A stretch of DNA of 64,000 bases from Nitrospiraceae bacterium (GTDB lineage: Bacteria; Nitrospirota; Nitrospiria; Nitrospirales; Nitrospiraceae). The stretch is taken from assembly GCA_050246315.1 (NCBI GenBank), contig JBFWWG010000004.1, forward strand, positions 128,001-192,000, written 5' to 3'. Position 1 is the stretch's first letter, and each line of letters opens with the position of its first letter. This document shows, in pieces, positions 1 through 11,721 of this stretch. The translations under genes and the position numbers were made by a program. Under the pieces are notes generated by a model. That model worked only from the letters and a program-made list of their open reading frames with translations. It was not told the origin of the DNA and ran no database searches.

Positions 1-2707
1 GCGATCGGGCTTCGTCGCGTCGGAGCAGCGGGGCGCATTTCATGACGGCCAGGACTCCGAGAGAGCGGCCCCCACTGTCGTCGAGCGGCGCGCCGATGTA
101 ACTTTCCACATCGAAGCGCCTGAGCAGGGGATCTGCCGGAAACAGGTCGCGGAGACACTGATCGTATATCTGCACCGACTGCCCGATGACGGTTTCGGAC
201 GGCGAGCCGGTCAACGGATAATCGAAGTTCGGCAACCGTTGCCCGCGCCCACAGACCGCGATCGTCCGGATCACACCAGGAGCCGATGGATGCGGGGTCG
301 CGACAAAGGCATACTCGGCGTCCAACGACGTACAGAGATGTTCCACAAGAGAATGGAACAACGCCTCACCCGTAGCGGCTGACACCCCGTTGGCCGCCTG
401 GAGGAGCCGTTCCTCCGCCCGCTTTCGAGCGGTAATATCGGTCAGGATGCCGTTCCAGACAATGCTCCCATCCGGCCGAGGAATCTCCGGAATGGAATCC
501 CCTCGGAGCCATTTGATCGAGCCGTCGTCCAATCCTACGCGGAATTCATGGCCCCAGGGAGACAATCCTTCTGCCGACTGTTGGATAGAGACCTGGAGGT
601 CGCCCAGATCTTCTGACAGCCCAAACCTCCATGCCTCCCGGACATCTCGCATCACCGCTCCCGCCTCGACGCCCAGAATCTCCTTGACGCCCCGGCTCAT
701 GAAGAGGAACCGATCGGTTCCATCCGGACTCAGTTGATACTGATAGACGGCTCCGGGAATGGCGTCCGTTATCCGCTGGAGCCGCAACTCCGTCTCGCGC
801 AGCGCCTCCTCCGCCTTTCGGCGCAAGGTAATATCACGCGCGATGCCGAGCACCCCGATGATCGCCCCATTTTTCTGGTAGACCCCTCCCGCACACTCCA
901 TCGACAACCATTCCCCATCCCGTTTCCGCAGTCGGAGTTCGACCCGATTGTCTCTAACGCCGGATAGGATATCGTCCAAGGACTGGACGGCCAGCGCGCG
1001 GTCGTCCGGATGAACCAACTCGGTGAAGGGCTGCCCAAGCCAGACTTGCCGCGAGCAGCCGGTCCGTGCCTCAAAGGCAGGATTGATGGACAGGATCAGC
1101 CCATCTGGCGACAGCAGGTAGACGATGTCTCTGAGGTTATCGACCAACGAGCGGTACTGGGCTTCGCTGTGTCGCGACGCCTCCTCCGCACGCGCTCGAT
1201 CAGTCAGATCGTGACAAGTACAGATGTATCCGTCGAATTCGCCGGCCTCATTCATCACACTCGACAGCGCTACCTCGACTGGAAACTGCGAGCCGTCCCG
1301 GCGCTTCCCTGTGATCTCGCCGCGCCATCGCCCCTCCCGTAACAAGAGCGGAAAGATCTTCCGTTCGTAGTCGGCCACCGATTCGGACGGGGTGATATTC
1401 TTCCAGGTCTTGCCGATCAACTCCTCCTGCTCATATCCGTATAGTTCGGCATGCGCGCGGTTAATATACGTATAGATACCGGTTTTGTCTAGCAGTGCCA
1501 TCCCTTCCATGGCGGTGTCAATCGCCCGCCTCATCACCGAATTCGCCTCCTCTACGAGCTTCCGAGAGGTGACGTCCACGGCGGTTCCGACCAGCTTGAC
1601 CGCGCGACCGTTGCCGTCCCGGGTGGTTGAGCCTCGAAGGTGCGTCCAGACGATCGATCCGTCCTTGTGAAGCATCCGCAACAGACATTCATAGTTGTCC
1701 GTCAGCCGATCGATGATCGCGATGGTGGCGTCTGTGGCCAGTCGCCTGTCTTCGGGATGGATGAGGGTGAACCAGTTCAGGTCTCTTTCATCCCATTCTT
1801 CCCGTCCATAGCCGAACAACGCCTTGAAGCTGGGATCTCCCTGGGATCGGCCGGCGAGGAAGTCGTACTCCCAGACCCCGACTCGTCCCGCGACGGCGGC
1901 CCGGGCGTACCGTTCCTCACTCTCACGGAGTAACTGTTCGGTCCGCTTGCGTTCGGTGATGTCCCGTACCGCACTCAGCATGACCGGTTCGCCCCGATAG
2001 CGAAACGGCAACGTCCGGACCTCGACGGGAATGAGGGTGCCGTCTTGACGTTGACCAACGCCTTCCGACTCGAATGCGCGTCCCTCAGCCGACGCGGCCG
2101 CAGCGTGCTCGACGTGAGCATCGGAATCAGCATGGATGATGTGCCGGCATGACAGGCCAAGCAGCTCCTCCCTGGAATACCCGTAGAGTTTCAAGGCTGC
2201 GGGATTGACGTCCAGAATGACTCCTTCATAACTGACCACCAACAGCGCATCCGGCGCGGACTCAAAGAGACACCGGCACCGTTCTTCGCTTTCGCGCAGT
2301 GCCTCTTGGGCGCGCCGCTGCTCGGTGAGCACCTCGGTGTACATGACCAACCCGGCGACCACCCCCTCTTCGCCATACCAGGGCCTGATCTCCCAACGGA
2401 CCCAATCCCGGCTGCCGTCATGGCGAAGGAAGTACTCGCCGTCGGAACCTTCCACGGCGCCGGCGAGGCAACGTTGGTGAATCTCCAGCCACCTCGGCAT
2501 AGACCGGATTTCCGGAAAGACGTCGTAGTGGTGCTCCCCGATGATGCGGCGATCGCCCAACCGATAATCTTCCAACCACCGCCGGCTTGCGGCCAGGTAC
2601 CGCAACTCCGCGTCCAAGATCGCCACGGCCGCCGGAATCTGTTCCATGACCAACAACAGGGCCGCATGCCCGGACGCCGCCAGGTCGAGATTGAGCGGGC
2701 GCATCAT
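1..2707 (-). CDS. Multi-PAS (about 6 PAS/PAC) + GAF sensor protein, probably a histidine kinase or other signalling enzyme; 3' end runs off the window
   Basis: Absent from the ORF track because it has no stop in the window. Read manually: RBS AGGAGGGG, then ATG at 2707 (MMRPLNLDLAASG...). Repeated PAS/PAC signatures (VNPAALKLYGYSREELLG, LIHPEDR, HKDGSIVW, AVRDITERKR, IARDIT, ILTDITARKRAEE) are followed by a GAF-like segment (FFHSLVEHL...SYIGAPL). Frame spot-checked at 2341 and 901. Confidence 0.85.
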   Translation of the reverse strand, partial: MMRPLNLDLAASGHAALLLVMEQIPAAVAILDAELRYLAASRRWLEDYRLGDRRIIGEHHYDVFPEIRSMPRWLEIHQRCLAGAVEGSDGEYFLRHDGSRDWVRWEIRPWYGEEGVVAGLVMYTEVLTEQRRAQEALRESEERCRCLFESAPDALLVVSYEGVILDVNPAALKLYGYSREELLGLSCRHIIHADSDAHVEHAAAASAEGRAFESEGVGQRQDGTLIPVEVRTLPFRYRGEPVMLSAVRDITERKRTEQLLRESEERYARAAVAGRVGVWEYDFLAGRSQGDPSFKALFGYGREEWDERDLNWFTLIHPEDRRLATDATIAIIDRLTDNYECLLRMLHKDGSIVWTHLRGSTTRDGNGRAVKLVGTAVDVTSRKLVEEANSVMRRAIDTAMEGMALLDKTGIYTYINRAHAELYGYEQEELIGKTWKNITPSESVADYERKIFPLLLREGRWRGEITGKRRDGSQFPVEVALSSVMNEAGEFDGYICTCHDLTDRARAEEASRHSEAQYRSLVDNLRDIVYLLSPDGLILSINPAFEARTGCSRQVWLGQPFTELVHPDDRALAVQSLDDILSGVRDNRVELRLRKRDGEWLSMECAGGVYQKNGAIIGVLGIARDITLRRKAEEALRETELRLQRITDAIPGAVYQYQLSPDGTDRFLFMSRGVKEILGVEAGAVMRDVREAWRFGLSEDLGDLQVSIQQSAEGLSPWGHEFRVGLDDGSIKWLRGDSIPEIPRPDGSIVWNGILTDITARKRAEERLLQAANGVSAATGEALFHSLVEHLCTSLDAEYAFVATPHPSAPGVIRTIAVCGRGQRLPNFDYPLTGSPSETVIGQSVQIYDQCLRDLFPADPLLRRFDVESYIGAPLDDSGGRSLGVLAVMKCAPLLRRDEARS

Positions 2708-2883: not shown

Positions 2884-4242
2884 CTAAGAAGACAGGCGTG
2901 GTTGTGTCGTGACCGCGCTCTTGGCCACAGCCGCCGCCATCGAGATACTGAACGCCCCTTCCCAATCCATGTCGGCTGGTACCAGGCGACGTGCCTCCAC
3001 GCTCTCCGTCCGAGACAGCGCCAACACGATGTTCTTGCCACCGAACCCGAAACTGTTGATGAGCGCCCGCTGGATGGCCGCCGGCCGCCCGTGCCCCGGA
3101 ACGTAATCCAAATCGCAATCGGGGTCCGGGTCGGTCAAATTCAGCGTCGGTGGCACAAACTGATGTTCCAATGACAGCACGGTGCTGATCACTTGAAAGG
3201 CGCCGCTCGCGGCAAACGCATGGCCCAAGGCACCCTTGAGGGAACTGACGGGCACCCGGTACGCATGCGCCCCCATTGCCTGCTTGATCGCCTTCGTCTC
3301 GATGGCGTCCAACTCCACGCTGCCGAGTCCACAGGCGTTGACATACTCCACTTCCTCCGGAAACCAGTGGGCGGCCATCAGCGCCCCCTCGATCGCACGC
3401 TGTTGCTCTCCTCCAGACTCCATAGGTTTGGCCATCGAGTGGGCGTCGCAGGTAAAGGCCCACCCTTCGAGCTCGGCATAAATATGTGCGCCTCGGCGGA
3501 CGGCATGCTCGTATTCCTCGAGTACCACGCAGCCGGCTCCCTCGCCCATGACGATGCCCGATCGGGTCCGATCGAATGGACGTGGCAGATTCCGCAACGA
3601 TCCCTGGCAATCCGGAGCCAGGGTCCGACCCGCTTCCATTGCGGACAGGATCGTCGGATGCAGCGGAGCTTCGGCTCCGCCTGCAACGACCAAATCGACG
3701 TTACGGGATCGAATCAGGTCGTAGGCCCGCCCGATGGCGTTCGCCGTTGAGGAACAGCCGATCGAATAGGTTTCGCACTCACCATGGACGCCGAGCGCAA
3801 TGGCCACTTCGGCGGAGACCGCGTTGGGGAAGGTGGCCGTCATGGTGAAGGGATGGAGATGTTGCTTGCGCAACATGCAATCATGCGCGGCGAAGGCTTC
3901 ACGAAGTCCGCCCACGGACGTGCCGAAGCTGATCGCCATACCGGAGCGGTCCTCGGCCTCCAGATCGAGGTCCGCGTCCCGCACGGCCATCAAGGCTGAC
4001 GCGACTGCGAAATGCGACACCCGGCCCATGCGTCTGGCTTGCTTGGGCGGAATGAAGTCCGTGGCATCAAAGTCCCGCACCTCGCCCGCTAAACAGGATT
4101 TGAACGAGGCGGTTTCGAAGGACTCGATCGGCCGGATTCCGGATTCCCCTCGGCAGAGCAAATGCCAAAACGTCCTGAGATCACAACCCAGTGGAGACAC
4201 GACACCCAACCCCGTAATCACAACGCGACGCGATAGGCTCAT
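2884..4242 (-). CDS. FabF/KAS-II-like beta-ketoacyl synthase with a non-canonical active site
   Basis: RRVVITGLGVVSPLG, RPFD..RSGIVMGEGAG and INSFGFGG motifs. Cys163 (IGC-SS) and His341 (KGALGH) are present, but the usual NAHGTST reads NACGLGS. RBS GAGGAGG. fabF symbol withheld because of the altered triad. Confidence 0.9.
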   Translation of the reverse strand: MSLSRRVVITGLGVVSPLGCDLRTFWHLLCRGESGIRPIESFETASFKSCLAGEVRDFDATDFIPPKQARRMGRVSHFAVASALMAVRDADLDLEAEDRSGMAISFGTSVGGLREAFAAHDCMLRKQHLHPFTMTATFPNAVSAEVAIALGVHGECETYSIGCSSTANAIGRAYDLIRSRNVDLVVAGGAEAPLHPTILSAMEAGRTLAPDCQGSLRNLPRPFDRTRSGIVMGEGAGCVVLEEYEHAVRRGAHIYAELEGWAFTCDAHSMAKPMESGGEQQRAIEGALMAAHWFPEEVEYVNACGLGSVELDAIETKAIKQAMGAHAYRVPVSSLKGALGHAFAASGAFQVISTVLSLEHQFVPPTLNLTDPDPDCDLDYVPGHGRPAAIQRALINSFGFGGKNIVLALSRTESVEARRLVPADMDWEGAFSISMAAAVAKSAVTTQPRLSS

Positions 4243-4364
4243 GGTTCATCCTCCTCGTGTGAGATCCATCTAAGGAAGGTCTGCTCAATTCAAGAATCTA
4301 GATGGCGACAAGACAAATTCCCTGTGTTTTGTGCACCGACCGATCGAAATCAGTATTTATTCAG

Positions 4365-4384
4365 GCCTTCCCTAACCGGCAGAT
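4365..4384. promoter_or_regulatory. Degenerate lux-box-like site upstream of the ketosynthase
   Basis: GCCTTCCCTAACCGGCAGAT fits NNCT-N12-AGNN and matches the 5758 box at 12/20 positions. Confidence 0.35.
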
Positions 4385-4398
4385 TCGTTTGGGCGTCC

Positions 4399-5679
4399 TC
4401 ACCTATGTTCCGTACCGTGCCAGACCGACATATGGTCCCGATGGGTTTCCCCCAACGCGTCCTGGGGATAAAACTTCTCGTAGAATCCAATGTCGACATG
4501 GTGGGCTTGAAACGCAATGACCGTCTTGAATGCATCCACATGAGCCGGGAAACGACCATAGGTACGATACACATACTCACAGAATCGAATCGCCGCTTCG
4601 ACCGCGCGCGCGCTATGCGGCTGGACTTCCTGCTCCTGCTTGCGGGGAATCCACGGCCAGGTGGCGGGATTAGGATAGATCCCGCTGGCGCCGAACTTGG
4701 AGTAGACGAGGTTCCGGACCGACGTCTCCATGGAAGGTACGAACGGCGGGCAGGGACCTTCCCAGATATCGGGGATGCCGACGGGGTTCGATCGGGCCCC
4801 AGGCACCAAGGACGGCGCAAACAGAAATCCAAGACCCGGATAGATTTGCGGTTCCCATCCAAGGAGATGCCGTCCACTCCCGACGCTCTGGATCCCGCCA
4901 CCCAGCCCGATGGCCTGCTCCATGAGGAACATGTTCTGGCACACCGCTCCTTGCTCCTGAAGCGCCGTGTCGCTGATCGCGGCATCGAGATCACGCAGTG
5001 TCATCATCCGCCGCGCGCCTGGGTCATCATGGAGGTATCCGCCTCGACTCTTTCGGAACTCATCCAGGCCGCACCCGGCCTGGCCGTTGTCGGTGTCCAC
5101 AATGAAATAGCCGTATTCCTCGCTGAGCAGTACCAGCAGGAGATTCAAATAGACCCGCGCCACCTCCGTCACGGGCACGATGAACTGCGAGCCCGGGCGG
5201 TTGGCATACCACTGGTTGAATGACAACATGAACGGCAATTGCCTGGGAATGTCCAAGCGGCTTGATTGGAGGCGCACCAGATTCGGACGGGCTCCGCTGT
5301 TCGGATGTGGCACGCCGGCTGCGTAAAATACCCCGTCGTCGTTCGACACAAAGAGCCTCGTCGTATTGGCCGCGCAGGCACTGGGGACGGTGCGTCCTCG
5401 AAACCCCATGATGGCCATGCCTTGCCCATCCTCATGGCCGGGCCGACGGACATACTGCATGTCGGCCAGGTGCGGACCGGTCTCCCCGACTCCGGCAAAG
5501 AGAAGGTAATGCAGCTCTTCAGCCGTCAGTGGGACCGGCTGCATCTCACTCCGATAGCGAAGCGGGCCAGCCGGCAGTTCCATCCCGCACCCAAAACGAC
5601 GGGTCCGTCGTTGCTGGAGCAAATCAACCAACGTTCTGAGTTCGGTGGATTGCGTCGCATGACAAGTCGAGGAAACCAT
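4399..5679 (-). CDS. Uncharacterised nitroreductase-fold (putative FMN-dependent) oxidoreductase
   Basis: N-terminal RRTRRF FMN-binding-like motif, RTVPSACA (cf. PSAG of nitroreductase/SagB-type enzymes) and C-terminal EQGAVCQNMFLMEQAIGLGG (cf. ExGxxxQNxxLxAxxxGLG). Start moved to ATG 5679, which follows RBS AAGGAGG. Confidence 0.7.
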   Translation of the reverse strand: MVSSTCHATQSTELRTLVDLLQQRRTRRFGCGMELPAGPLRYRSEMQPVPLTAEELHYLLFAGVGETGPHLADMQYVRRPGHEDGQGMAIMGFRGRTVPSACAANTTRLFVSNDDGVFYAAGVPHPNSGARPNLVRLQSSRLDIPRQLPFMLSFNQWYANRPGSQFIVPVTEVARVYLNLLLVLLSEEYGYFIVDTDNGQAGCGLDEFRKSRGGYLHDDPGARRMMTLRDLDAAISDTALQEQGAVCQNMFLMEQAIGLGGGIQSVGSGRHLLGWEPQIYPGLGFLFAPSLVPGARSNPVGIPDIWEGPCPPFVPSMETSVRNLVYSKFGASGIYPNPATWPWIPRKQEQEVQPHSARAVEAAIRFCEYVYRTYGRFPAHVDAFKTVIAFQAHHVDIGFYEKFYPQDALGETHRDHMSVWHGTEHR

Positions 5680-5729
5680 GGGTGCGCCTCCTTGGTGCAT
5701 GAGTCTTCTCCGCTCGCGCGGCTGGCGAG

Positions 5730-5777
5730 ACTCTACAAAGATGGTGCTATCGCTGTAACCTACCCACCCGGGTAGGT
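5730..5777 (-). promoter_or_regulatory. LuxR-activated promoter: 20-bp lux box plus -10 element
   Basis: ACCTACCC-ACCC-GGGTAGGT at 5758-5777 has perfect 8-bp arms and the ACCT-N12-AGGT format. On the minus strand TG-TAGAGT (-10 hexamer at 5730-5735) follows 22 nt later, close to the luxI promoter geometry. Confidence 0.8.
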
Positions 5778-5913
5778 CAGCGGAGTCTCATCCCGGGAAC
5801 GGAGAGGACATGAAGTAGATTGATGTGTGGAAGGCAGCCGAACATGGAGTGGGTTCGGAACAGCCCTGGGAACGGGATTCGACTGTGGTTTGAAAAACCT
5901 GAACGATGGCGGA

Positions 5914-6723
5914 CTAGGACGTCGCTTCTGAATGGCGGTTCGCACGGGCGGCAGGGAGGAGGAGTTCGAGGAGTTCATTGTGCTGGGACCGCCAGTTAGC
6001 GATAGCACTCCAGCGGTTTTCCACCCCCCCCAACTTCTCATAGATGTTCTTGAGGTGAAACTTCACGGTGTTCAGACTCACACTCAATATCACCGAGATT
6101 TCCCAGTTCGTTTTCCCTTCGGCAACCCAACGCATAATCTCCTCTTCGCGCTTGGTCAATTGCGCCTGAGGGGTCTGCGCCGGAGACTGATCCTGAGGGG
6201 TCAACGCGCGGAGATAGGCCAGATGGAAATGGGGGGAGAGGATTTGCATAATCGCACGTAGCTTGGGCATCGTCTTGTGGTCGAAATTGCTGAATGCAAA
6301 ATAGGTGCACGCGCCGAGCACGCCGCGAATCCCGACCGATAGACAGCTTTTGATGCCGAAATCCAGTTTGAGGCTCGTGACCTCTCTGGGCACCTCAATC
6401 GCGGGGGCATCTTCGCTGGTCACAAATCCGAACCGAGTGGTTTGCATCAGTTGGATTGCGGGGTCGCTCAGGAACCCACACGACGCATAGAGGTATGAAA
6501 ACTCATCGCCATAACTCGAATGGCCGATTTGCAATTCGCATTTTCTGACGTTGAATGCCCCACAGGCCGAAAACTCGTGCGGGATGATGGAGCCGACCGC
6601 CGCCGTCAAGGCGGACAGTCGTGACTGGGAATCCACCGATTGCGTCTGATACATGATGTCCCGCAGTTGCTGAAATTCCTTGCGGGATGGGTACGGGAGA
6701 GCCTCGGTGCCTCGAACAATCAC
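5914..6723 (-). CDS. LuxR-family regulator (autoinducer-binding-like domain + LuxR HTH), LuxR solo
   Basis: SYGDEFSYLYASCGFLSDP ligand-domain pattern and C-terminal LTKREEEIMRWVAEGKTNWEISVILSVSLNTVKFHLKNIYEKLG. GTG start after AGAGGA. No luxI in the window. Confidence 0.9.
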   Translation of the reverse strand: MIVRGTEALPYPSRKEFQQLRDIMYQTQSVDSQSRLSALTAAVGSIIPHEFSACGAFNVRKCELQIGHSSYGDEFSYLYASCGFLSDPAIQLMQTTRFGFVTSEDAPAIEVPREVTSLKLDFGIKSCLSVGIRGVLGACTYFAFSNFDHKTMPKLRAIMQILSPHFHLAYLRALTPQDQSPAQTPQAQLTKREEEIMRWVAEGKTNWEISVILSVSLNTVKFHLKNIYEKLGGVENRWSAIANWRSQHNELLELLLPAARANRHSEATS

Positions 6724-6841
6724 GCCGCGATCCTCTATGCAGAAGAGTCAACCAAACCGGCGGGCACAGAGTCAACCCCGGAACACCCGAGGCTGACCAC
6801 GAGGAATGCAAGACGATGCGATACGGCCATCTGTCGGACCC

Positions 6842-6863
6842 TCACTTCCTCTTCGGGAAGTGA
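6842..6863. promoter_or_regulatory. Palindrome upstream of luxR, possible autoregulatory lux-type box
   Basis: TCACTTCC-TCTTCG-GGAAGTGA has perfect 8-bp arms. The inner 20-mer fits NNCT-N12-AGNN. There is no U-tract, so it is not a typical intrinsic terminator. Confidence 0.45.
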
Positions 6864-7038
6864 AGGATGACCGGATTATGGTGCTGGTTGTGGCCGTAAA
6901 ATCGGACGGTATCATAGCACCATCTGCATCGATGAGAAATAGAGACGTTCGGTCCTATCTCGAATTAAATCAACCGATATTTCACAGACTTTTGTGGTGC
7001 TTTTCGATCACAGAAGAGGAATGAAGAGCGGAGCAGGA

Positions 7039-7749
7039 TTAGTCGTTCATGACGATCAGCAGTTCGACGCGCCGGTTTTTCGCGCGACCGTCCGGAGTTG
7101 TGTTATTCGTCAGCGGTTTGTACTCGGCGAAGCCGCTTGCGGAGAGACCGCCTGTGGGGACGCCATAAACTTCGCTCAGCGCTCGCACGACCGAGGCCGC
7201 TCTAGCAGTGGACAATTCCCAGTTCGATGGAAATTGAATGCTTTGTATTGGCACATTGTCGGTATGTCCTTGGACCCGCACCTCCTTAGGAGCCTGATCG
7301 ATCAGTACCTCCGCCAGAGCCTCAAGCAACGGCAGCGCCTCCGGGCGCAGCTCGGCCTGTCCGCTCTCGAACATCGTGCTGTCGGCGATGGTGATCAGGA
7401 CGCCTTCATCCGTGTCGGCAATGGCCACATGTTTGGTGAAAAGAACATCGCGGCTGCGGCTGGACAACACCTCCTGGATTTTCCTGACCAGGATCGGTTT
7501 TTGGTGAAGCACCGGCACCAGCGACGACTTGTGCGCGCCCATCTCGAACACCTTGTCAGAGACCGGGGTGCTGACAACTGGTTTCAACGCGGCCTGGATC
7601 GATTCGCTCACCACCCTAAATTTGCCCTCGTTGACGGATGAAACAGAGTACATCACCACGAAGAAAGCGAACAGCAGCGTGATGAAGTCGGCATACGACA
7701 CCAGCCACCGTTCGTGGTTCTCATGCTCTTCGTGCTTACGTTTGGACAT
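7039..7749 (-). CDS. motB: Flagellar motor stator protein MotB
   Basis: ERWLVSYADFITLLFAFF transmembrane motif with the Asp. OmpA-like GHTDN, NWELS.ARA and KNRRVE. Start at ATG 7749. Confidence 0.95.
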   Translation of the reverse strand: MSKRKHEEHENHERWLVSYADFITLLFAFFVVMYSVSSVNEGKFRVVSESIQAALKPVVSTPVSDKVFEMGAHKSSLVPVLHQKPILVRKIQEVLSSRSRDVLFTKHVAIADTDEGVLITIADSTMFESGQAELRPEALPLLEALAEVLIDQAPKEVRVQGHTDNVPIQSIQFPSNWELSTARAASVVRALSEVYGVPTGGLSASGFAEYKPLTNNTTPDGRAKNRRVELLIVMND

Positions 7750-7756
7750 CTGGCTT

Positions 7757-8518
7757 TTATTTTTCGTGGATCTGTCCGCCGCCGATGTATCCGGAGAGTT
7801 TCTCTTCCAATTGACGAGGGTTATCTCCGGATGCGATGCCAACCAGTCCCGAAATCAGCATCATCCGCATCCCCGTTTCCTGCTTGATCTTCAGTTTGAT
7901 CTTGTTGCCCAACGGGAGAAAGAACAAGTTCGCCGCACCCACTCCATACACTGTCGCCACAAAGGCCGTGGCGATTCCGCTCCCAAGCTTGGAAGGATCG
8001 GCCAAATTTTCCATCACGTGAATCAGACCCAATACCGCTCCCAAGATCCCGACGGTGGGCGCATACCCTCCGGCGGCTTCCCACACTTTGGCCGCGGCCG
8101 TCCCCTCTTCCTCATGATGCTCCACTTCCACTTCGAGGATCTCTCGGACCATCTTCGCGTCGGTGCCATCCACGATCAGTTGCAATCCTTTCGCGAAGAA
8201 GGGATCTTTGATGTCCTTGATCTTGCCCTCCAGGGCCAATAACCCCTGCTTCCTGGCCACCTGAGCCAAGTCGACCACTTGCTTCAATTGCCCCTTAGGA
8301 TCGTGCTTGGGATTCAATAGCGCCAGCGACAGGAGCGAGAAGCTCTTCATCACCACGGGAAGGGGATTTTGAACGAAACAGGCGCCGATCGTTCCGCCAA
8401 GTACGATCATAAACGCAGTCAACTGCATGATAGAGCCCACGTGTCCGCCTTCCAGGGCTTGCCCGCCCAGGATGGAGCCTAGGGCTACCACCACGCCGAG
8501 CACGGTCAGAATATCCAT
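7757..8518 (-). CDS. motA: Flagellar motor stator protein MotA
   Basis: ARKQGLLALE, GGYAPTVGILGAVLGLI and AFVATVYG motifs. Confidence 0.95.
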   Translation of the reverse strand: MDILTVLGVVVALGSILGGQALEGGHVGSIMQLTAFMIVLGGTIGACFVQNPLPVVMKSFSLLSLALLNPKHDPKGQLKQVVDLAQVARKQGLLALEGKIKDIKDPFFAKGLQLIVDGTDAKMVREILEVEVEHHEEEGTAAAKVWEAAGGYAPTVGILGAVLGLIHVMENLADPSKLGSGIATAFVATVYGVGAANLFFLPLGNKIKLKIKQETGMRMMLISGLVGIASGDNPRQLEEKLSGYIGGGQIHEK

Positions 8519-8653
8519 CCCGCTCGCTTTCCCTGACGGGCATCCCGAGCAGGCACGCCAGCCGCAGCATGGTACGATTCCGTTCGACTCAATCCGTCGT
8601 TCGCTCGCATGACTCGGGATCCTGATGAAGACGATGCCGGAGCCGCCTGCACG

Positions 8654-8833
8654 TTATTGCAAGCGCGCAGCCCGATGGACCCATTCGTCGAGATCTCGGC
8701 GTACAAAGCGCCAGTGCTTTCCGATCTTAGATGCGGGAATCTGCCCGAGCCGAGCCAGCTTATAGACGGTGGATTTTGGGACGCGGAGCAAATGCGCAAC
8801 CTCGAGAACGGTGAGGATTTCAATCTGTGCCAT
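8654..8833 (-). CDS. Small excisionase-family (HTH_17/MerR-like) DNA-binding protein, 59 aa
   Basis: ILTVLEVAHLLRVPKSTVYKLARLGQIPASKIGKHWRF. Start at ATG 8833, downstream of a sigma28 promoter. Confidence 0.85.
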   Translation of the reverse strand: MAQIEILTVLEVAHLLRVPKSTVYKLARLGQIPASKIGKHWRFVRRDLDEWVHRAARLQ

Positions 8834-8894
8834 GACCGTGGCTCCACCTGGCCGTTGATTCATCGGGCGCACACATCCCCTTGCCTGTTGTGTG

Positions 8895-8922
8895 TTATCG
8901 GCCCGAGACCGAGGAAACTTAA
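8895..8922 (-). promoter_or_regulatory. sigma28 (FliA) promoter for the HTH gene and probably motAB
   Basis: TTAAGTTT-N12-GCCGATAA on the minus strand. Confidence 0.85.
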
Positions 8923-8973
8923 GACAGGGCTTCTCACCGATCTGGTCCGCCATGCCATCGGGAGCTGCCTGGA

Positions 8974-9579
8974 TCAGGCATGCGACAGGCCAGGCGCGCG
9001 CTGTTCGCCACGCCGCTGTTCAGCCTGGACGTGAAGAATGTGGCGGATGAGGGATTCCTGATGATCGGCACTAATGTCGAGAAACTTTGCCCCGATGAGA
9101 TATTTTTTCTCTTCCGACCCTCTTGATTCAGTCACACGACTGACCTCCGCCACAGCGGCAATCGGAAAGAACGGTGGAAGAATCAGCTTCACCTCAATCT
9201 GGTCGCCTTCGTGGAAGCGTTGGTCGGTCGGGAAACTGATCCCGGTTGCACTGATATTGACCTGCGTCATTTTCGGCAGCGGAAGCCCGCCAGGCACCGT
9301 CTGTGCCAGTGCTCCGACAACCAAGGCCAGCGCCCAATCGATCTTCATGAGCCAGGGAACCAGCAAGGCTTGAGGGTCATCGGGCCTGATTTGATTCAGC
9401 AGACGGTCCGTGGGCGCGGAGATGAAATCATGGATCGCCGTTGCGCTACGGGGGTCCATTCCGATAACGGTGCAAGTAGAAGGCTGTCCAATCGAGCGAT
9501 ACTCCAGTAGTAGCCGATCATCGATGCGCTGCCAACCTCGTCGATCGAATTCCACCGATTCTGTCGTCGGCAATGGCAC
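8974..9579 (-). CDS. PilZ-domain c-di-GMP receptor
   Basis: RRGWQR (RxxxR) and NISATG (D/NxSxxG). GTG 9579 follows GGAGG; the ORF track starts at 9666. Confidence 0.85.
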   Translation of the reverse strand: MPLPTTESVEFDRRGWQRIDDRLLLEYRSIGQPSTCTVIGMDPRSATAIHDFISAPTDRLLNQIRPDDPQALLVPWLMKIDWALALVVGALAQTVPGGLPLPKMTQVNISATGISFPTDQRFHEGDQIEVKLILPPFFPIAAVAEVSRVTESRGSEEKKYLIGAKFLDISADHQESLIRHILHVQAEQRRGEQRAPGLSHA

Positions 9580-9596
9580 GTTCCGGCTTCCTCCAG

Positions 9597-9950
9597 CTAG
9601 CTGAGACGATCGAGTTGCCTCCCCACCGATCGGCCGTCGACCAGGGTCGATGAAAATGATTTCCACCGAGACCGCGCGGCCGCCGCCTCCACCAACAATT
9701 GGTGCAGGGCGGCTTTCGCCACGAGGGCGCGCGCCATAATGGTCTCGTCCATGGCCAGGAGCGCACAGGCCAGGTTCGGCATCACATGGTTATGTTTGAA
9801 CCACGTGCGACGCGCGTCATAACAAGCCGAGACTCGGTCCCAGTCTCCTCGCTCGGCGGCTTCCAGCGCCTCGACTGTGAGACGGCCGATCCCGTCAGTC
9901 CACGCCCCTGGTGTCGGAAAGTTATTCGGTTCGGGCATGAATGGCCGCAC
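9597..9950 (-). CDS. FliT-like helical chaperone (hypothetical)
   Basis: Position after fliS, AERGDWDRV..YDARR pattern and all-helical composition. Start uncertain. Confidence 0.55.
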   Translation of the reverse strand: MRPFMPEPNNFPTPGAWTDGIGRLTVEALEAAERGDWDRVSACYDARRTWFKHNHVMPNLACALLAMDETIMARALVAKAALHQLLVEAAAARSRWKSFSSTLVDGRSVGRQLDRLS

Positions 9951-10314
9951 CGCTTTCCGCGAGCTTCTGCCAAGCCTCGCGTAAGATGCTCAGGCATCGG
10001 ACCGGGCCATCGAGACGATGGGCCTGATGGTGAAGATTGACGTAAAGCAGCTCCGCCAAGATGTAATCGTACAGACGCCGCAAGGACACCGCAATGTCTT
10101 CGCCCTGCTGCATGTCGAGCACGTCGGACAATTCCGTTACAATGTTGACCGCACGGCTTAGGAACCTGGCCCTGTCGGCTGCTCGATTCCCCCGGATGCT
10201 TTCCTGCGCGAGCAGCATGGCCTGGATTGCTCCGTCGTACAGGACCACGACCACCTGCACGCCGGACGAGGTCATCACATTTGTTTGCTGGTACTGCTGG
10301 ACCGCACTTCGCAT
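9922..10314 (-). CDS. fliS: Flagellin chaperone FliS
   Basis: QYQQ..V.TSS..VVVLYDGAI, LDM..G.DIA..L.RLYDY and LREAW motifs. Confidence 0.95.
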   Translation of the reverse strand: MRSAVQQYQQTNVMTSSGVQVVVVLYDGAIQAMLLAQESIRGNRAADRARFLSRAVNIVTELSDVLDMQQGEDIAVSLRRLYDYILAELLYVNLHHQAHRLDGPVRCLSILREAWQKLAESGAAIHARTE

Positions 10315-10329
10315 GACACCTCTTTACGA

Positions 10330-11721
10330 TCAGGAGATTCGCGTGCGCAAGAAGTCGGCTTGAGACTGGAGCTGGCGGAGCAAGCCGTCCAAGTTGGCAT
10401 ATTGGAGCCGCAGTCGCGCCTCATAGGCCGCCACCTCGTCTTCCTTCCGCTGGATACTGTCGGCCATTTTCTCGATTTCTTGAGTCAGGCTGTTCTTGCG
10501 GGAGGACACCACACCAGTTTCCAATTCGTCCAGCCGGTCGACGGCCTCCGTGACACGCTGGGCAATTCCGGTCACGGTCGACTGCCGAATAAACAACGCG
10601 CGAGCGGCTGAGTAGTCGGTGCTGAGTGCTTGGGACAGCCTAGCTTCATCGAGTGTGAGGGTGCCGTCGCGTTCCGTCTTGAACCCCACCTGACCCGCGC
10701 TGGTATAAGTGGACAGTCCTGGCACTTCTCCGGAGATAGCCTGTCGAAGCGCAGAGAGCGTGGTCCGGACCGCCGATTCCCCCGTCAAAATTCCCGCCTT
10801 CGCGGTCGCCGGATCGAAGGTCGCCCGCTCATGAATGAATTTCACCACGTCGTTGTAGGCAGCGACCAGTTTCTTGATGTTGTCCTTCACCGTTGCGGTA
10901 TCGAGGCTGACGGTCACGTTGACCGAGTCCGTTCCGACTGTCACCTGCTTGAGGTTGAGCGTCACGCCCGGGATGACATCCGTGACGGTGTTCCCGCTCC
11001 GTTGGATAGTCAATTGCGTTTGGGCAGGATCCCCGATGACGAGGATCGCATCCTGCGCGACTTGAAGCGTGTCCGCCCCCCCCGTACCGGACGTGTTGGC
11101 CAGGTCCAAGGCGGTGCCGTCGGCCGTGATGGAAATCGTGTTGGCGGCTCCCGTACTGGTTCCCGTCAGCACCAGCCGATAGGCGGGTGCCTGTGCTGTT
11201 CCGGAGTTCACTATGGACGCGGTGACGCCAGCGCCCAGGTCGTTGATGGCTGTACGCAAGTCCTCCAGCGTGCCACTATCCCCCAAAGTTACCGTCTGCT
11301 CCGCCCCGGTTCCCACGCGGAAGGACACCACGGCCGACGTCCCGGCCACGATGTCCGCTGTGGAACTCGCAACCGCTTTGGCCGCCTTGTTGGTTATTTG
11401 ATGAGCGGTGGCGAGTTGGGTAACCTGCACCCGGTAGTTGCCCTGGACCGCCGTAGAGGAAGAGGAAAGAGAGAGGACTTCCTCGTCGCTGACGGTTGCG
11501 CTCGTGCGATCAAATGAACTCGCGAGTCTCAAGGCATCCGCAGCCCCTTGGACTGCCAGCAGCTTGGCGCCGAGTGAACCTAGATCGGCCAGTTTTGATT
11601 GCAATACTGTCTTCTTTTCGTTCAGCTTATCGATCGGCAAGCGCTGGATCTTCACCAGCTCGGTCACAACCTGGCCGAAGTCGATGCCGTTGCCCAGACC
11701 TCCGAAACTGACAGTCGCCAT
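10330..11721 (-). CDS. fliD: Flagellar filament cap FliD
   Basis: SFGGLGNGIDF start, VTQLA.AH, NTVTDVIPGVTLNL and C-terminal RLRLQYANLD..L.QLQSQ. Confidence 0.95.
   Translation of the reverse strand: MATVSFGGLGNGIDFGQVVTELVKIQRLPIDKLNEKKTVLQSKLADLGSLGAKLLAVQGAADALRLASSFDRTSATVSDEEVLSLSSSSTAVQGNYRVQVTQLATAHQITNKAAKAVASSTADIVAGTSAVVSFRVGTGAEQTVTLGDSGTLEDLRTAINDLGAGVTASIVNSGTAQAPAYRLVLTGTSTGAANTISITADGTALDLANTSGTGGADTLQVAQDAILVIGDPAQTQLTIQRSGNTVTDVIPGVTLNLKQVTVGTDSVNVTVSLDTATVKDNIKKLVAAYNDVVKFIHERATFDPATAKAGILTGESAVRTTLSALRQAISGEVPGLSTYTSAGQVGFKTERDGTLTLDEARLSQALSTDYSAARALFIRQSTVTGIAQRVTEAVDRLDELETGVVSSRKNSLTQEIEKMADSIQRKEDEVAAYEARLRLQYANLDGLLRQLQSQADFLRTRIS

Follow-up and report, generated by a model that had tools for sequence, protein, structure and literature searches.

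We describe a compact regulator-enzyme unit in a stretch of 64,000 nucleotides (the window) from the genome of a nitrite-oxidising Nitrospira (assembly GCA_050246315.1, contig JBFWWG010000004.1, positions 128,001 to 192,000; genome size 4.39 Mb, 100% complete). Read 5' to 3' on the minus strand, the unit consists of luxR1, encoding a quorum-sensing-type LuxR receptor; a 20-bp palindrome; NR, encoding a nitroreductase-fold protein predicted to be a flavoenzyme; and KS, encoding a FabF-like ketosynthase with a changed active site (Table 1). We propose that this is an operon for an acyl-derived metabolite under activation by LuxR1, and we put the probability of this reading as a whole at roughly 55%. 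An earlier annotation made from the sequence of the window (the original prediction) had named the same co-directional elements, including a lux-type palindrome at the promoter, an uncharacterised flavoenzyme-like gene and a ketosynthase with an altered active site; each of them was recovered in place on the minus strand, and the analyses below bear out these descriptions.

Conservation of the unit across the Nitrospiraceae

Full-length orthologues of NR are found in 7 genomes of 4 genera among 41 relatives, and in all seven luxR1 is located 5' and KS 3' of the gene. Extending the search to a sample of the phylum, 16 of 301 genomes matched NR at an E value of 1e-10 or better, 15 of them in the same family. 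Fourteen of the 18 loci from this search are orthologous (56–100% identity) and each carries an adjacent KS; LuxR1 is encoded inside the 1.5-kb flank in 11 of these, and in the other three it lies further upstream, behind a divergent cytochrome P450 gene. A family-wide sample contained the NR orthologue in 38 of 151 Nitrospiraceae genomes. Additionally, we examined 42 named public loci, including that of N. moscoviensis NSP M-1. KS follows NR at every locus where the contig continues (39/39), and LuxR1 is found upstream wherever there is enough sequence (40/40). Thus, the synteny of the three genes, which the original prediction had put forward as a check, is borne out together with that of the palindrome. 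Gene order, operator and active-site variants are conserved across at least 9 genera, down to 44–57% protein identity.

The divergent P450 gene shares the same operator in 19 of the 42 named loci (L069, which is N. moscoviensis NZ_CP011801.1, L062–L066, L068, L071, L072, L075–L077, L081, L082, L084, L089, L090, L097 and L098). It encodes a protein of ~530 amino acids (PF00067, 311 bits) and is located between luxR1 and the operator, pointing away from NR. No orthologue of this P450 was found in the present genome, where the best P450, on contig 5, is 26% identical. Reading frames are intact in all named loci except L090 (contig CAWIWD010000006.1 of a metagenome-assembled genome), in which NR, KS, the P450 gene and the following regulator are each split into two adjacent pieces, either because the copy has decayed or because of frameshift errors in long-read assembly.

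A single operator and a matching recognition helix

The palindrome, ACCTACCC-GGGT-GGGTAGGT, is a perfect 8-4-8 inverted repeat which occurs once in the window and in none of 100 shuffles, and it is the sole zero-mismatch operator site in the 4.39-Mb genome. In the first 7 loci compared the operator is conserved while the remaining intergenic DNA cannot be aligned, and CCTACCC-N4-GGGTAGG lies 5' of NR in 13/13 further genome loci, with a variable 4-nt spacer. Among the 42 named loci the operator is exact in 37, has one mismatch in 2 and is replaced in the same place by a diverged form in 3.

A lux-box promoter is defined by an inverted repeat of roughly 20 bp centred near -42 in a promoter that lacks a -35 element. 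The putative promoter of NR has such features: the inverted repeat of ~20 bp, the hexamer TAGAGT 22 nt downstream and no match to a -35 element. When the upstream regions were aligned on the operator (58 oriented sequences, with repeated loci included and P450 loci counted in both orientations), TAnnnT at ~22 nt downstream was the only other conserved block. At P450 loci TAnnnT flanks the operator on both sides at ~22 nt, an arrangement which describes what would be a bidirectional, activator-dependent promoter. The operator is positioned as a class-II LuxR activator site would be.

The recognition helix of LuxR1 reads SLNT(V/I)KFHLKN at every locus with a standard operator. A variant helix, SLNTVKTHLKN (KTH for KFH), is found at L058/L094, which represent one genome, and at L096, all of which have the diverged operator; the third diverged-operator locus is on a contig without luxR1. 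Because helix variants track operator variants, this pattern supports LuxR1 as the operator-binding protein.

One further operator-bearing fragment, L099 (RGPS01000555.1), is a 1.2-kb contig labelled Terriglobia bacterium which spans the operator together with the last part of luxR1 and the first part of NR, at 73–80% identity to Nitrospira. Mis-binning of a Nitrospira fragment is the most likely explanation.

LuxR1 retains the receptor fold and lacks both AHL-sensor tryptophans

LuxR1 (269 amino acids, with a GTG start preceded by AGAGGA) has a C-terminal GerE domain (PF00196, 67.6 bits) with a LuxR-type helix-turn-helix. Its match to Autoind_bind (PF03472) is marginal, with 24.3 bits where 23 is the cut-off, and a genome-level PF03472 search did not recover it; a 17.1-bit match of that family in an 875-residue frame on contig 1 was taken as noise. 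LuxR1 matches CviR (4e-15) and SdiA (3e-14) in phmmer searches, and its best NCBIfam match, EpsA, is far under the cut-off. In a Foldseek search with the AlphaFold model (predicted local distance difference test, pLDDT, 86) the top matches were all quorum-sensing receptors: CviR, SdiA, RhlR, LasR, QscR and TraR, with a probability of 1.00. The model was matched to both full-length and ligand-domain receptor structures, including CepR2, with template modelling scores (TMt) of 0.70–0.71 for the ligand domains.

Sensors of N-acyl-homoserine lactones (AHLs) are defined by the residues WYDPWG (W57, Y61, D70, P71, W85 and G113 of TraR), and substitutions among them have been proposed to mark sensors of other ligands (PMC4235431). 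In our alignment LuxR1 has F-Y-D-P-T-(G/C) in place of this motif. While Y61, D70 and P71 are kept, both tryptophans are replaced, and LuxR1 thus lacks the AHL-sensor signature. At the W57 position none of 14 LuxR1 sequences has tryptophan (F in 9, including the one studied here, H in 3, L in 1 and M in 1), and at the W85 position all 14 have threonine or serine, threonine here. The G113 position is glycine in our alignment and cysteine in two published tables for probable orthologues (see below). The receptors that adjoin luxI (LuxR2, n = 5) have tryptophan at both positions and also keep the tyrosine, aspartate and proline, as judged in an alignment that included CviR.

A ketosynthase clade with a substituted catalytic histidine

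KS contains the two domains of KAS I/II-type enzymes (PF00109, 144 bits; PF02801, 113.5 bits), and its ATG is preceded by GAGGAGG at 7 nt. Compared with Synechocystis FabF (1e5m), the nucleophilic cysteine, the second histidine and the lysine are kept, while NAHGT is changed to NACGL and GFGGHN to GFGGKN. The first histidine of the Cys-His-His triad is a cysteine in KS, and the protein scores 417.9 bits with TIGR03150, less than the 493.75 required of a FabF, although it passes the broader subfamily PRK07314 (414 vs 387). The two other KAS genes of this genome encode NAHGT and NAHAT, and a canonical FabF-like gene is found on contig 16.

Both substitutions are fixed in the clade. NACGLG and GFGGKN occur together in 72/72 locus rows with an identity of at least 66%, among which the same genome often recurs. 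Among the best 120 database homologues, 106 have the NACGLG pattern; a single one, 36% identical, has NAHGSS, and 13, fragments for the most part, gave no match to the motif expression. A sister group from outside the Nitrospirota (P0387–P0392, for example WP_165922962.1 of Sulfurirhabdus autotrophica; 52–55% identity) belongs to the 106 and keeps NACGLG and GFGGKN. An NR cluster at 50% identity also exists, and scans of genome contigs returned no locus for either.

The histidine of the HGTGT motif is required for decarboxylative condensation, and its loss defines the non-elongating ketosynthases termed KS0 (PMC4661987). KS has the KS0 pattern of a retained cysteine and a lost histidine, and without the decarboxylation histidine it may transfer acyl groups rather than elongate them. 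The pairing of an invariant cysteine with an invariant lysine suggests a changed reaction and not decay, and the replacement pattern as a whole points to a new catalytic role and not to loss alone. The replacement cysteine may have a parallel in the second catalytic cysteine of thiolases.

An unnamed nitroreductase-fold family

NR probably starts at the second ATG of its frame, at 5679, to give 426 amino acids (433 if started at 5700). Three observations favour this ATG: AAGGAGG precedes it by 7 nt, a relative with 93% identity is likewise 426 residues long, and the Atlas record has residue 8 as its first. That Atlas entry reads only "hypothetical protein". Annotation by sequence was weak throughout: the Pfam Nitroreductase family (PF00881) gave 17.6 bits, under the gathering cut-off of 23.5, and matched 6 of the 43 family members with an E value of at most 0.01 (best 4.5e-05); no NCBIfam family was assigned; and phmmer returned no match in the Protein Data Bank (PDB), where a profile of the 43 members found weak nitroreductase matches (Frp, 1.4e-4).

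The predicted structure (pLDDT 92) has a nitroreductase fold, with a Foldseek probability of 1.00. Using VIA-align, the closest of the chains listed were two uncharacterised flavin mononucleotide (FMN) nitroreductases, 8cqs (Z 16.0, root-mean-square deviation 2.4, 180 residues aligned) and 3hj9 (Z 15.3). ThcOx (Z 14.0), BmdC (13.5), CLA-ER (11.8), AlbA (11.4) and McbC (11.1) were also matched; 51 of the 48,161 chains aligned reached a Z of at least 8, and the rows listed are of the nitroreductase fold. Since ~180 of 433 residues align, the core carries large insertions. Near the N-terminus an arginine-rich RRxRRF motif is nearly invariant in the family, where we take it to bind the FMN phosphate. 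The family is unnamed and comprises 958 clusters at 50% identity. Azoline oxidase was considered as an identity for NR and rejected, as neither YcaO nor a cyclodehydratase is present among the scanned neighbours.

The Nitrospiraceae also contain paralogues of NR that are 33–38% identical to it (L024, L025, L026, L027, L049 and L050). KS and LuxR1 are absent from the flanks of the last two.

Relation of the unit to luxI

No luxI was found in the 100%-complete genome by a PF00765 search, which does not cover the LuxM/AinS and HdtS types, and tblastn with two Nitrospira LuxI proteins gave no match. As a positive control, the same PF00765 search identified luxI in 6 of the 41 relatives; three congeners also returned none. 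Within the 151 family genomes, 38 have the unit, 51 have luxI and 4 have both (G014, G164, G390 and G399). In G014 the order is luxR1, NR, KS, luxR2 and a convergent luxI, an arrangement which N. moscoviensis (L069) and L081 resemble, while in G164 the luxR2/luxI pair is located just 5' of luxR1, which L087 resembles. Contig breaks conceal the relation of the unit to luxI in G390 and G399. The description of luxR1 as a LuxR solo without luxI in the original prediction thus holds for this genome, in which none was found, but does not extend to N. moscoviensis and four other genomes or loci, where luxR/luxI adjoins the unit. This adjacency makes the unit part of the quorum-sensing island of Nitrospira, and its role could be that of a quorum-sensing output instead of a signal system of its own.

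Additionally, 11 of the 42 named loci (L064, L067, L068, L074, L078, L079, L080, L085, L092, L094 and L096) encode LuxR2-like C-terminal pieces of 61–102 residues 3' of KS. These pieces are 53–76% identical to the luxI-linked receptor of G014/G164 and occupy the place of the intact luxR2-luxI pair in N. moscoviensis. Tentatively, they are remnants of a lost luxR2/luxI pair or, alternatively, small genes encoding only a helix-turn-helix.

A published reporter experiment bears on the same operator. "Nspbox68" (ACCTACCCCGGTGGG), listed before a hypothetical protein on the nspI scaffold (PMC8553950, supplementary table 4), is in a promoter that bears the operator of this unit. According to table 6 of that study, NspR1 with C8-homoserine lactone (C8-HSL) yielded 1.06 +/- 0.1-fold with Nspbox68, compared to 197-fold and 14-fold with two true NspR1 boxes (PMC8553950). 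This result indicates that the canonical Nitrospira AHL receptor does not use the operator, at least in E. coli.

Genomic setting and expression

The coordinates of the unit and of neighbouring features are given in Table 1. luxR1 is separated from the palindrome by 136 nt and NR from KS by 156 nt. The promoter candidate 5' of luxR1 is a weak one, as the consensus scan of the region returned 2 sites where 1.8 are expected from shuffles. In this genus the unit is flanked by motB on one side and by a kinase with PAS and GAF domains on the other, and the neighbourhood of kinase, sigma-54-dependent regulator and NarL-type regulator 3' of KS is conserved in this genus only. In other genera the flanks are a copper-amine-oxidase-like gene and a NarL-type regulator, both of which are found on contig 9 in this genome. 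Since the neighbours differ between genera and the old neighbours are on contig 9, the unit has moved as a block. No acyl carrier protein (ACP) or further biosynthetic gene was found among the scanned neighbours.

The link of the unit to motility genes is likewise specific to this genus, and other genera place the unit elsewhere.

Six RNA-library runs contained part of the stretch, and contigs were examined from 4 runs of 2 studies. Each of the four has contigs over NR and KS, including one that spans the gap between the two genes (Table 1), which lends weak support to in-situ transcription of the pair. The contig ends of X15 and X16 (near 5698–5714), which would fit a start just 3' of the -10-like hexamer, were considered as a transcription start; as contigs of X17 and X18 span the operator, no start is claimed.

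Table 1. Features of the unit and its surroundings in the window (positions as numbered in the window)
Feature	Position	Strand	Basis or remarks
luxR1, quorum-sensing-type LuxR receptor with altered ligand motif	5914..6723	-	Pfam, fold match
20-bp lux-type operator, ACCTACCC, 4-nt spacer, GGGTAGGT	5758..5777	.	Shuffles, genome scan, conservation
-10-like hexamer TAGAGT, 22 nt 3' of operator, without -35 match	5730..5735	-	Sequence reading
NR, nitroreductase-fold protein of unnamed family, 426 amino acids	4399..5679	-	Predicted fold, weak Pfam match
KS, FabF-like, Cys-Cys-His active site, NACGLG for NAHGT, clade-specific Lys in GFGG loop	2884..4242	-	Pfam, alignment
Sigma-70-like promoter candidate 5' of luxR1	6911..6938	-	TTCTCA, 16 nt, TG-TATGAT; consensus scan, weak
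Flagellar stator genes motB and motA, PilZ-domain gene and fliD, 5' of the unit	7039-11721		
1439-aa histidine kinase (six PAS and GAF), sigma-54-dependent response regulator and NarL-type regulator, 3' of KS	2-2707		Continue beyond the window edge (L142 5389-9708, 3952-5385, 2873-3712)
Gap-bridging RNA contig, X15	3524-5698		RNA library
Gap-bridging RNA contig, X16	3959-4840		RNA library
Gap-bridging RNA contig, X17	4064-4879		RNA library
Gap-bridging RNA contig, X18	4149-4850		RNA library

Proposed function and alternatives

From these features we infer that LuxR1 acts as an activator, what chemistry the two enzymes perform, that a product exists and what the ligand is. A LuxR1 dimer would bind the 20-bp palindrome, overlapping the -35 position of a promoter that has no -35 element, and would activate transcription of NR and KS; from the same site it would additionally activate the divergent P450 gene where this is present, in about half of the related loci. 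NR and KS would probably act on a fatty-acyl thioester. With its acyl-accepting cysteine kept and the decarboxylation histidine lost, KS would most likely hold or transfer the acyl chain, which the FMN enzyme NR (the flavin is predicted) would oxidise or reduce, a chemistry suggested by the folds and active-site residues. The product would be a small acyl-derived molecule, and it is the likeliest candidate for the ligand of LuxR1, which would close a non-AHL autoinduction loop.

The steps of this scheme differ in strength. The regulatory link from LuxR1 through the operator to the enzyme genes appears highly likely from its conservation, and it is fairly likely that the enzymes serve the biosynthesis or modification of a small molecule. 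That the product is LuxR1's own signal is a tentative suggestion, on balance doubtful. About as likely is the boldest form of the proposal, in which NR and the Cys-Cys-His KS, with the P450 where present, would be a new kind of autoinducer synthase that makes a fatty-acid-derived, non-AHL signal with positive feedback through the operator. Favouring a self-contained loop are the inheritance of LuxR1 with the enzymes and not with luxI, the receptor-operator-synthase layout, a pocket without the AHL-contacting tryptophans and the largely complementary distribution of the unit and luxI across genera. The interpretation offered in the original prediction, two enzymes making or modifying an acyl-derived signal or metabolite under LuxR control, thus finds partial support, from the co-conserved unit, the placement of the operator, the tracking of operator by helix and the loss of both AHL-motif tryptophans.

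Several observations weigh against the proposed LuxR1-activated acyl-metabolite operon. On the regulatory side, the covariation of helix and operator may reflect a single evolutionary event, and pathway-specific regulators just as typically have one operator per genome. The complementary distribution of the unit and luxI follows genus lines, the figures being raw genome counts uncorrected for relatedness. In G014, G164, N. moscoviensis, L081 and L087 the unit has a canonical luxR2/luxI pair as its immediate neighbour, so that unit and luxR/luxI are adjacent wherever both are on one contig, and the published negative result covers NspR1 alone, in E. coli. As for transcription, contigs from RNA runs reveal neither starts nor levels, DNA may be present in RNA libraries, and contigs in 2 of the 4 runs (X17 and X18) span the operator. 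On the enzymatic side, the function of NR is read from its predicted fold; KS, its condensation histidine lost, may build no carbon skeleton; and the unit includes no ACP, thioesterase or exporter. Distant relatives of NR (26–41% identity) were accompanied by KS, LuxR1 or the box in 0/40 metagenome loci. The neighbourhoods of four paralogues (L024–L027) are mutually unrelated and include a GH57 glycosidase; an extracytoplasmic-function (ECF) sigma factor, a ChrR-like cupin and a DUF3641 radical-SAM gene; and a molybdopterin oxidoreductase.

The most serious alternative, although an unlikely one in our estimate, is that the unit is a quorum-sensing output. LuxR1 would be a second AHL receptor, responding to self-made AHL in cells with luxI and, where luxI has been lost, to AHLs of neighbours, and NR, KS and the P450 would be a density-controlled secondary-metabolite or AHL-tailoring function and not a signal synthase. 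The adjoining luxR2/luxI pairs in the five cases named above speak for this view, and the LuxR2-like pieces in 11 of 42 loci suggest a decayed ancestral combined locus. The receptor fold is retained in LuxR1, as are Y61, D70 and P71. Oxidation of AHLs by P450 enzymes is known. With its ACCT...AGGT ends the operator is similar to the NspR1 box (PMC8553950), and linked extra enzymes that shape an AHL have been described (PMC10470506). This view is opposed by the replacement of both AHL-sensor tryptophans in 14/14 LuxR1 sequences and by the inactivity of the operator with NspR1 and C8-HSL. Moreover, LuxR1 travels with the enzymes rather than with luxI, and 34 of the 38 unit genomes have no luxI; in these the enzymes cannot tailor a home-made AHL.

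Less probable again is a substrate-induced metabolic or detoxification operon without cell-to-cell signalling, in which LuxR1 would sense a fatty acid, lipid or xenobiotic and the induced NR, acyl-handling KS-like enzyme and P450 would modify or remove the compound or remodel lipids. Some LuxR solos of plant-associated bacteria control one neighbouring enzyme gene, being adjacent to pip. Such solos also have a substituted motif (PMC4235431). Just one operator exists in the genome, as would befit a regulator dedicated to the adjacent genes, and the unit is free of an exporter or ACP. Nitroreductase-fold enzymes and P450s are common in the modification of xenobiotics and fatty acids, and one fold neighbour of NR, CLA-ER (Z 11.8), is an enone reductase of fatty-acid metabolism. 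Against this stand the physical tie of the unit to the luxR/luxI locus wherever both share a contig, the lack of conserved catabolic partner genes around the unit, and a KS clade with a dedicated, invariant active-site variant, which would be unusual for catabolism.

Finally, chance juxtaposition or decay of genes with no joint function, for which only the split NR, KS and P450 genes of L090 speak, is very improbable given an order, operator and active-site variants kept over at least 9 genera to 44–57% identity, frames intact at all other loci and RNA-library contigs that cover the genes.

Significance

In wastewater plants, soils and waters Nitrospira oxidise nitrite, and the comammox species among them perform complete nitrification. 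A large part of their diversity is known from metagenomes only, and the genus is hard to study genetically. Persistence of the unit without luxI could point either to an unrecognised signal chemistry or to a dedicated LuxR solo that controls an acyl metabolite. If the enzymes do form an autoinducer synthase, the unit would replace the LuxI/AHL channel in lineages lacking luxI and would provide a private signal for nitrite oxidisers that rank among the most abundant in wastewater plants and soils. Because a defined promoter, a regulator and two or three genes are involved, the ligand of LuxR solos from outside the Proteobacteria becomes testable in E. coli. Enzymologically, both a KS clade with an invariant cysteine in place of the decarboxylation histidine and a nitroreductase-fold family of 430 residues are unexplored.

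Comparison with known systems

The closest known parallels are PluR/PpyS (photopyrones) and PauR/DarABC (dialkylresorcinols) of Photorhabdus, in which a LuxR solo with an Autoind_bind-type domain and a substituted WYDPWG motif is paired with a ketosynthase-based signal synthase that is not a LuxI. PpyS and DarB are FabH-like, and dialkylresorcinols also require DarA and DarC. KS is set apart by this family type, being FabF-like (PF00109/PF02801) with a Cys-Cys-His active site. Its partner is also different, a nitroreductase-fold enzyme and sometimes a P450, with ACP and aromatase absent, and the phylum is Nitrospirota. The Photorhabdus solos have the motifs TYDQCS and TYDQYI and non-AHL ligands (PMC4235431), whereas the motif here is F-Y-D-P-(T/S)-(G/C) with P71 kept.

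Taken separately, the enzymes also have relatives with which they share only part of their features. Similar to the KS0 domains of trans-acyltransferase (trans-AT) and other type I polyketide synthases, for which non-decarboxylating behaviour is predicted (PMC4661987), KS retains the acyl-accepting cysteine and has lost the HGTGT histidine. Unlike them, it is a free-standing FabF-like protein and not a domain of a modular synthase, and it has an invariant cysteine as the replacement and an invariant lysine in the GFGG loop. NR shares its fold with ThcOx, BmdC, McbC, AlbA and CLA-ER, but its core carries ~230 inserted residues, identity is 14–18%, and its scanned neighbours include no cyclodehydratase, nonribosomal peptide synthetase (NRPS) or cyclodipeptide-synthase partner.

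AHL signalling is documented in Nitrospira, some lineages of which lack luxI (PMC5767232). The pairs NspR1/NspI, NjpR/NjpI and AubR/AubI and that of N. moscoviensis come from the same genus and use a 20-bp box with ACCT...AGGT ends (PMC8553950), and Nitrospira AHL pairs adjoin the unit in some genomes. They differ in having a LuxI and a receptor with intact W-D-P-W-G, as listed in supplementary table 5 of PMC8553950, whereas no LuxI was found in this genome. The three-gene AHL circuit of Mesorhizobium (R1-I1) resembles the unit in that a linked extra enzyme takes part in signal making (PMC10470506); that circuit depends on a LuxI synthase, and its extra gene is probably of another family.

Probable orthologues of LuxR1 have appeared in surveys. 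The N. defluvii solo D8PAV3 is tabulated with F-Y-D-P-gap-C (PMC4338825), and the sludge receptors UR5 and UR44 with F-D-P-S-C (PMC8553950, supplementary table 5); since these share the substitution pattern of LuxR1, they are probably orthologues. The accessible portions of both surveys link the regulator neither to the NR-KS genes nor to the operator. Solo and box are each present separately in survey tables, the available text of a study mining Nitrospira biosynthetic gene clusters does not mention this cluster (PMC9765116), and the accessible parts of the literature searched yielded no description of the NR-KS pair or its link to a regulator, in agreement with the statement in the original prediction that the gene combination is not that of a described system. 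What the present analysis adds to these precedents is the co-inheritance of the unit in 38 of 151 genomes, its fixed operator half-sites, the covariation of helix and operator, the P450 variant and the adjacency to luxR/luxI.

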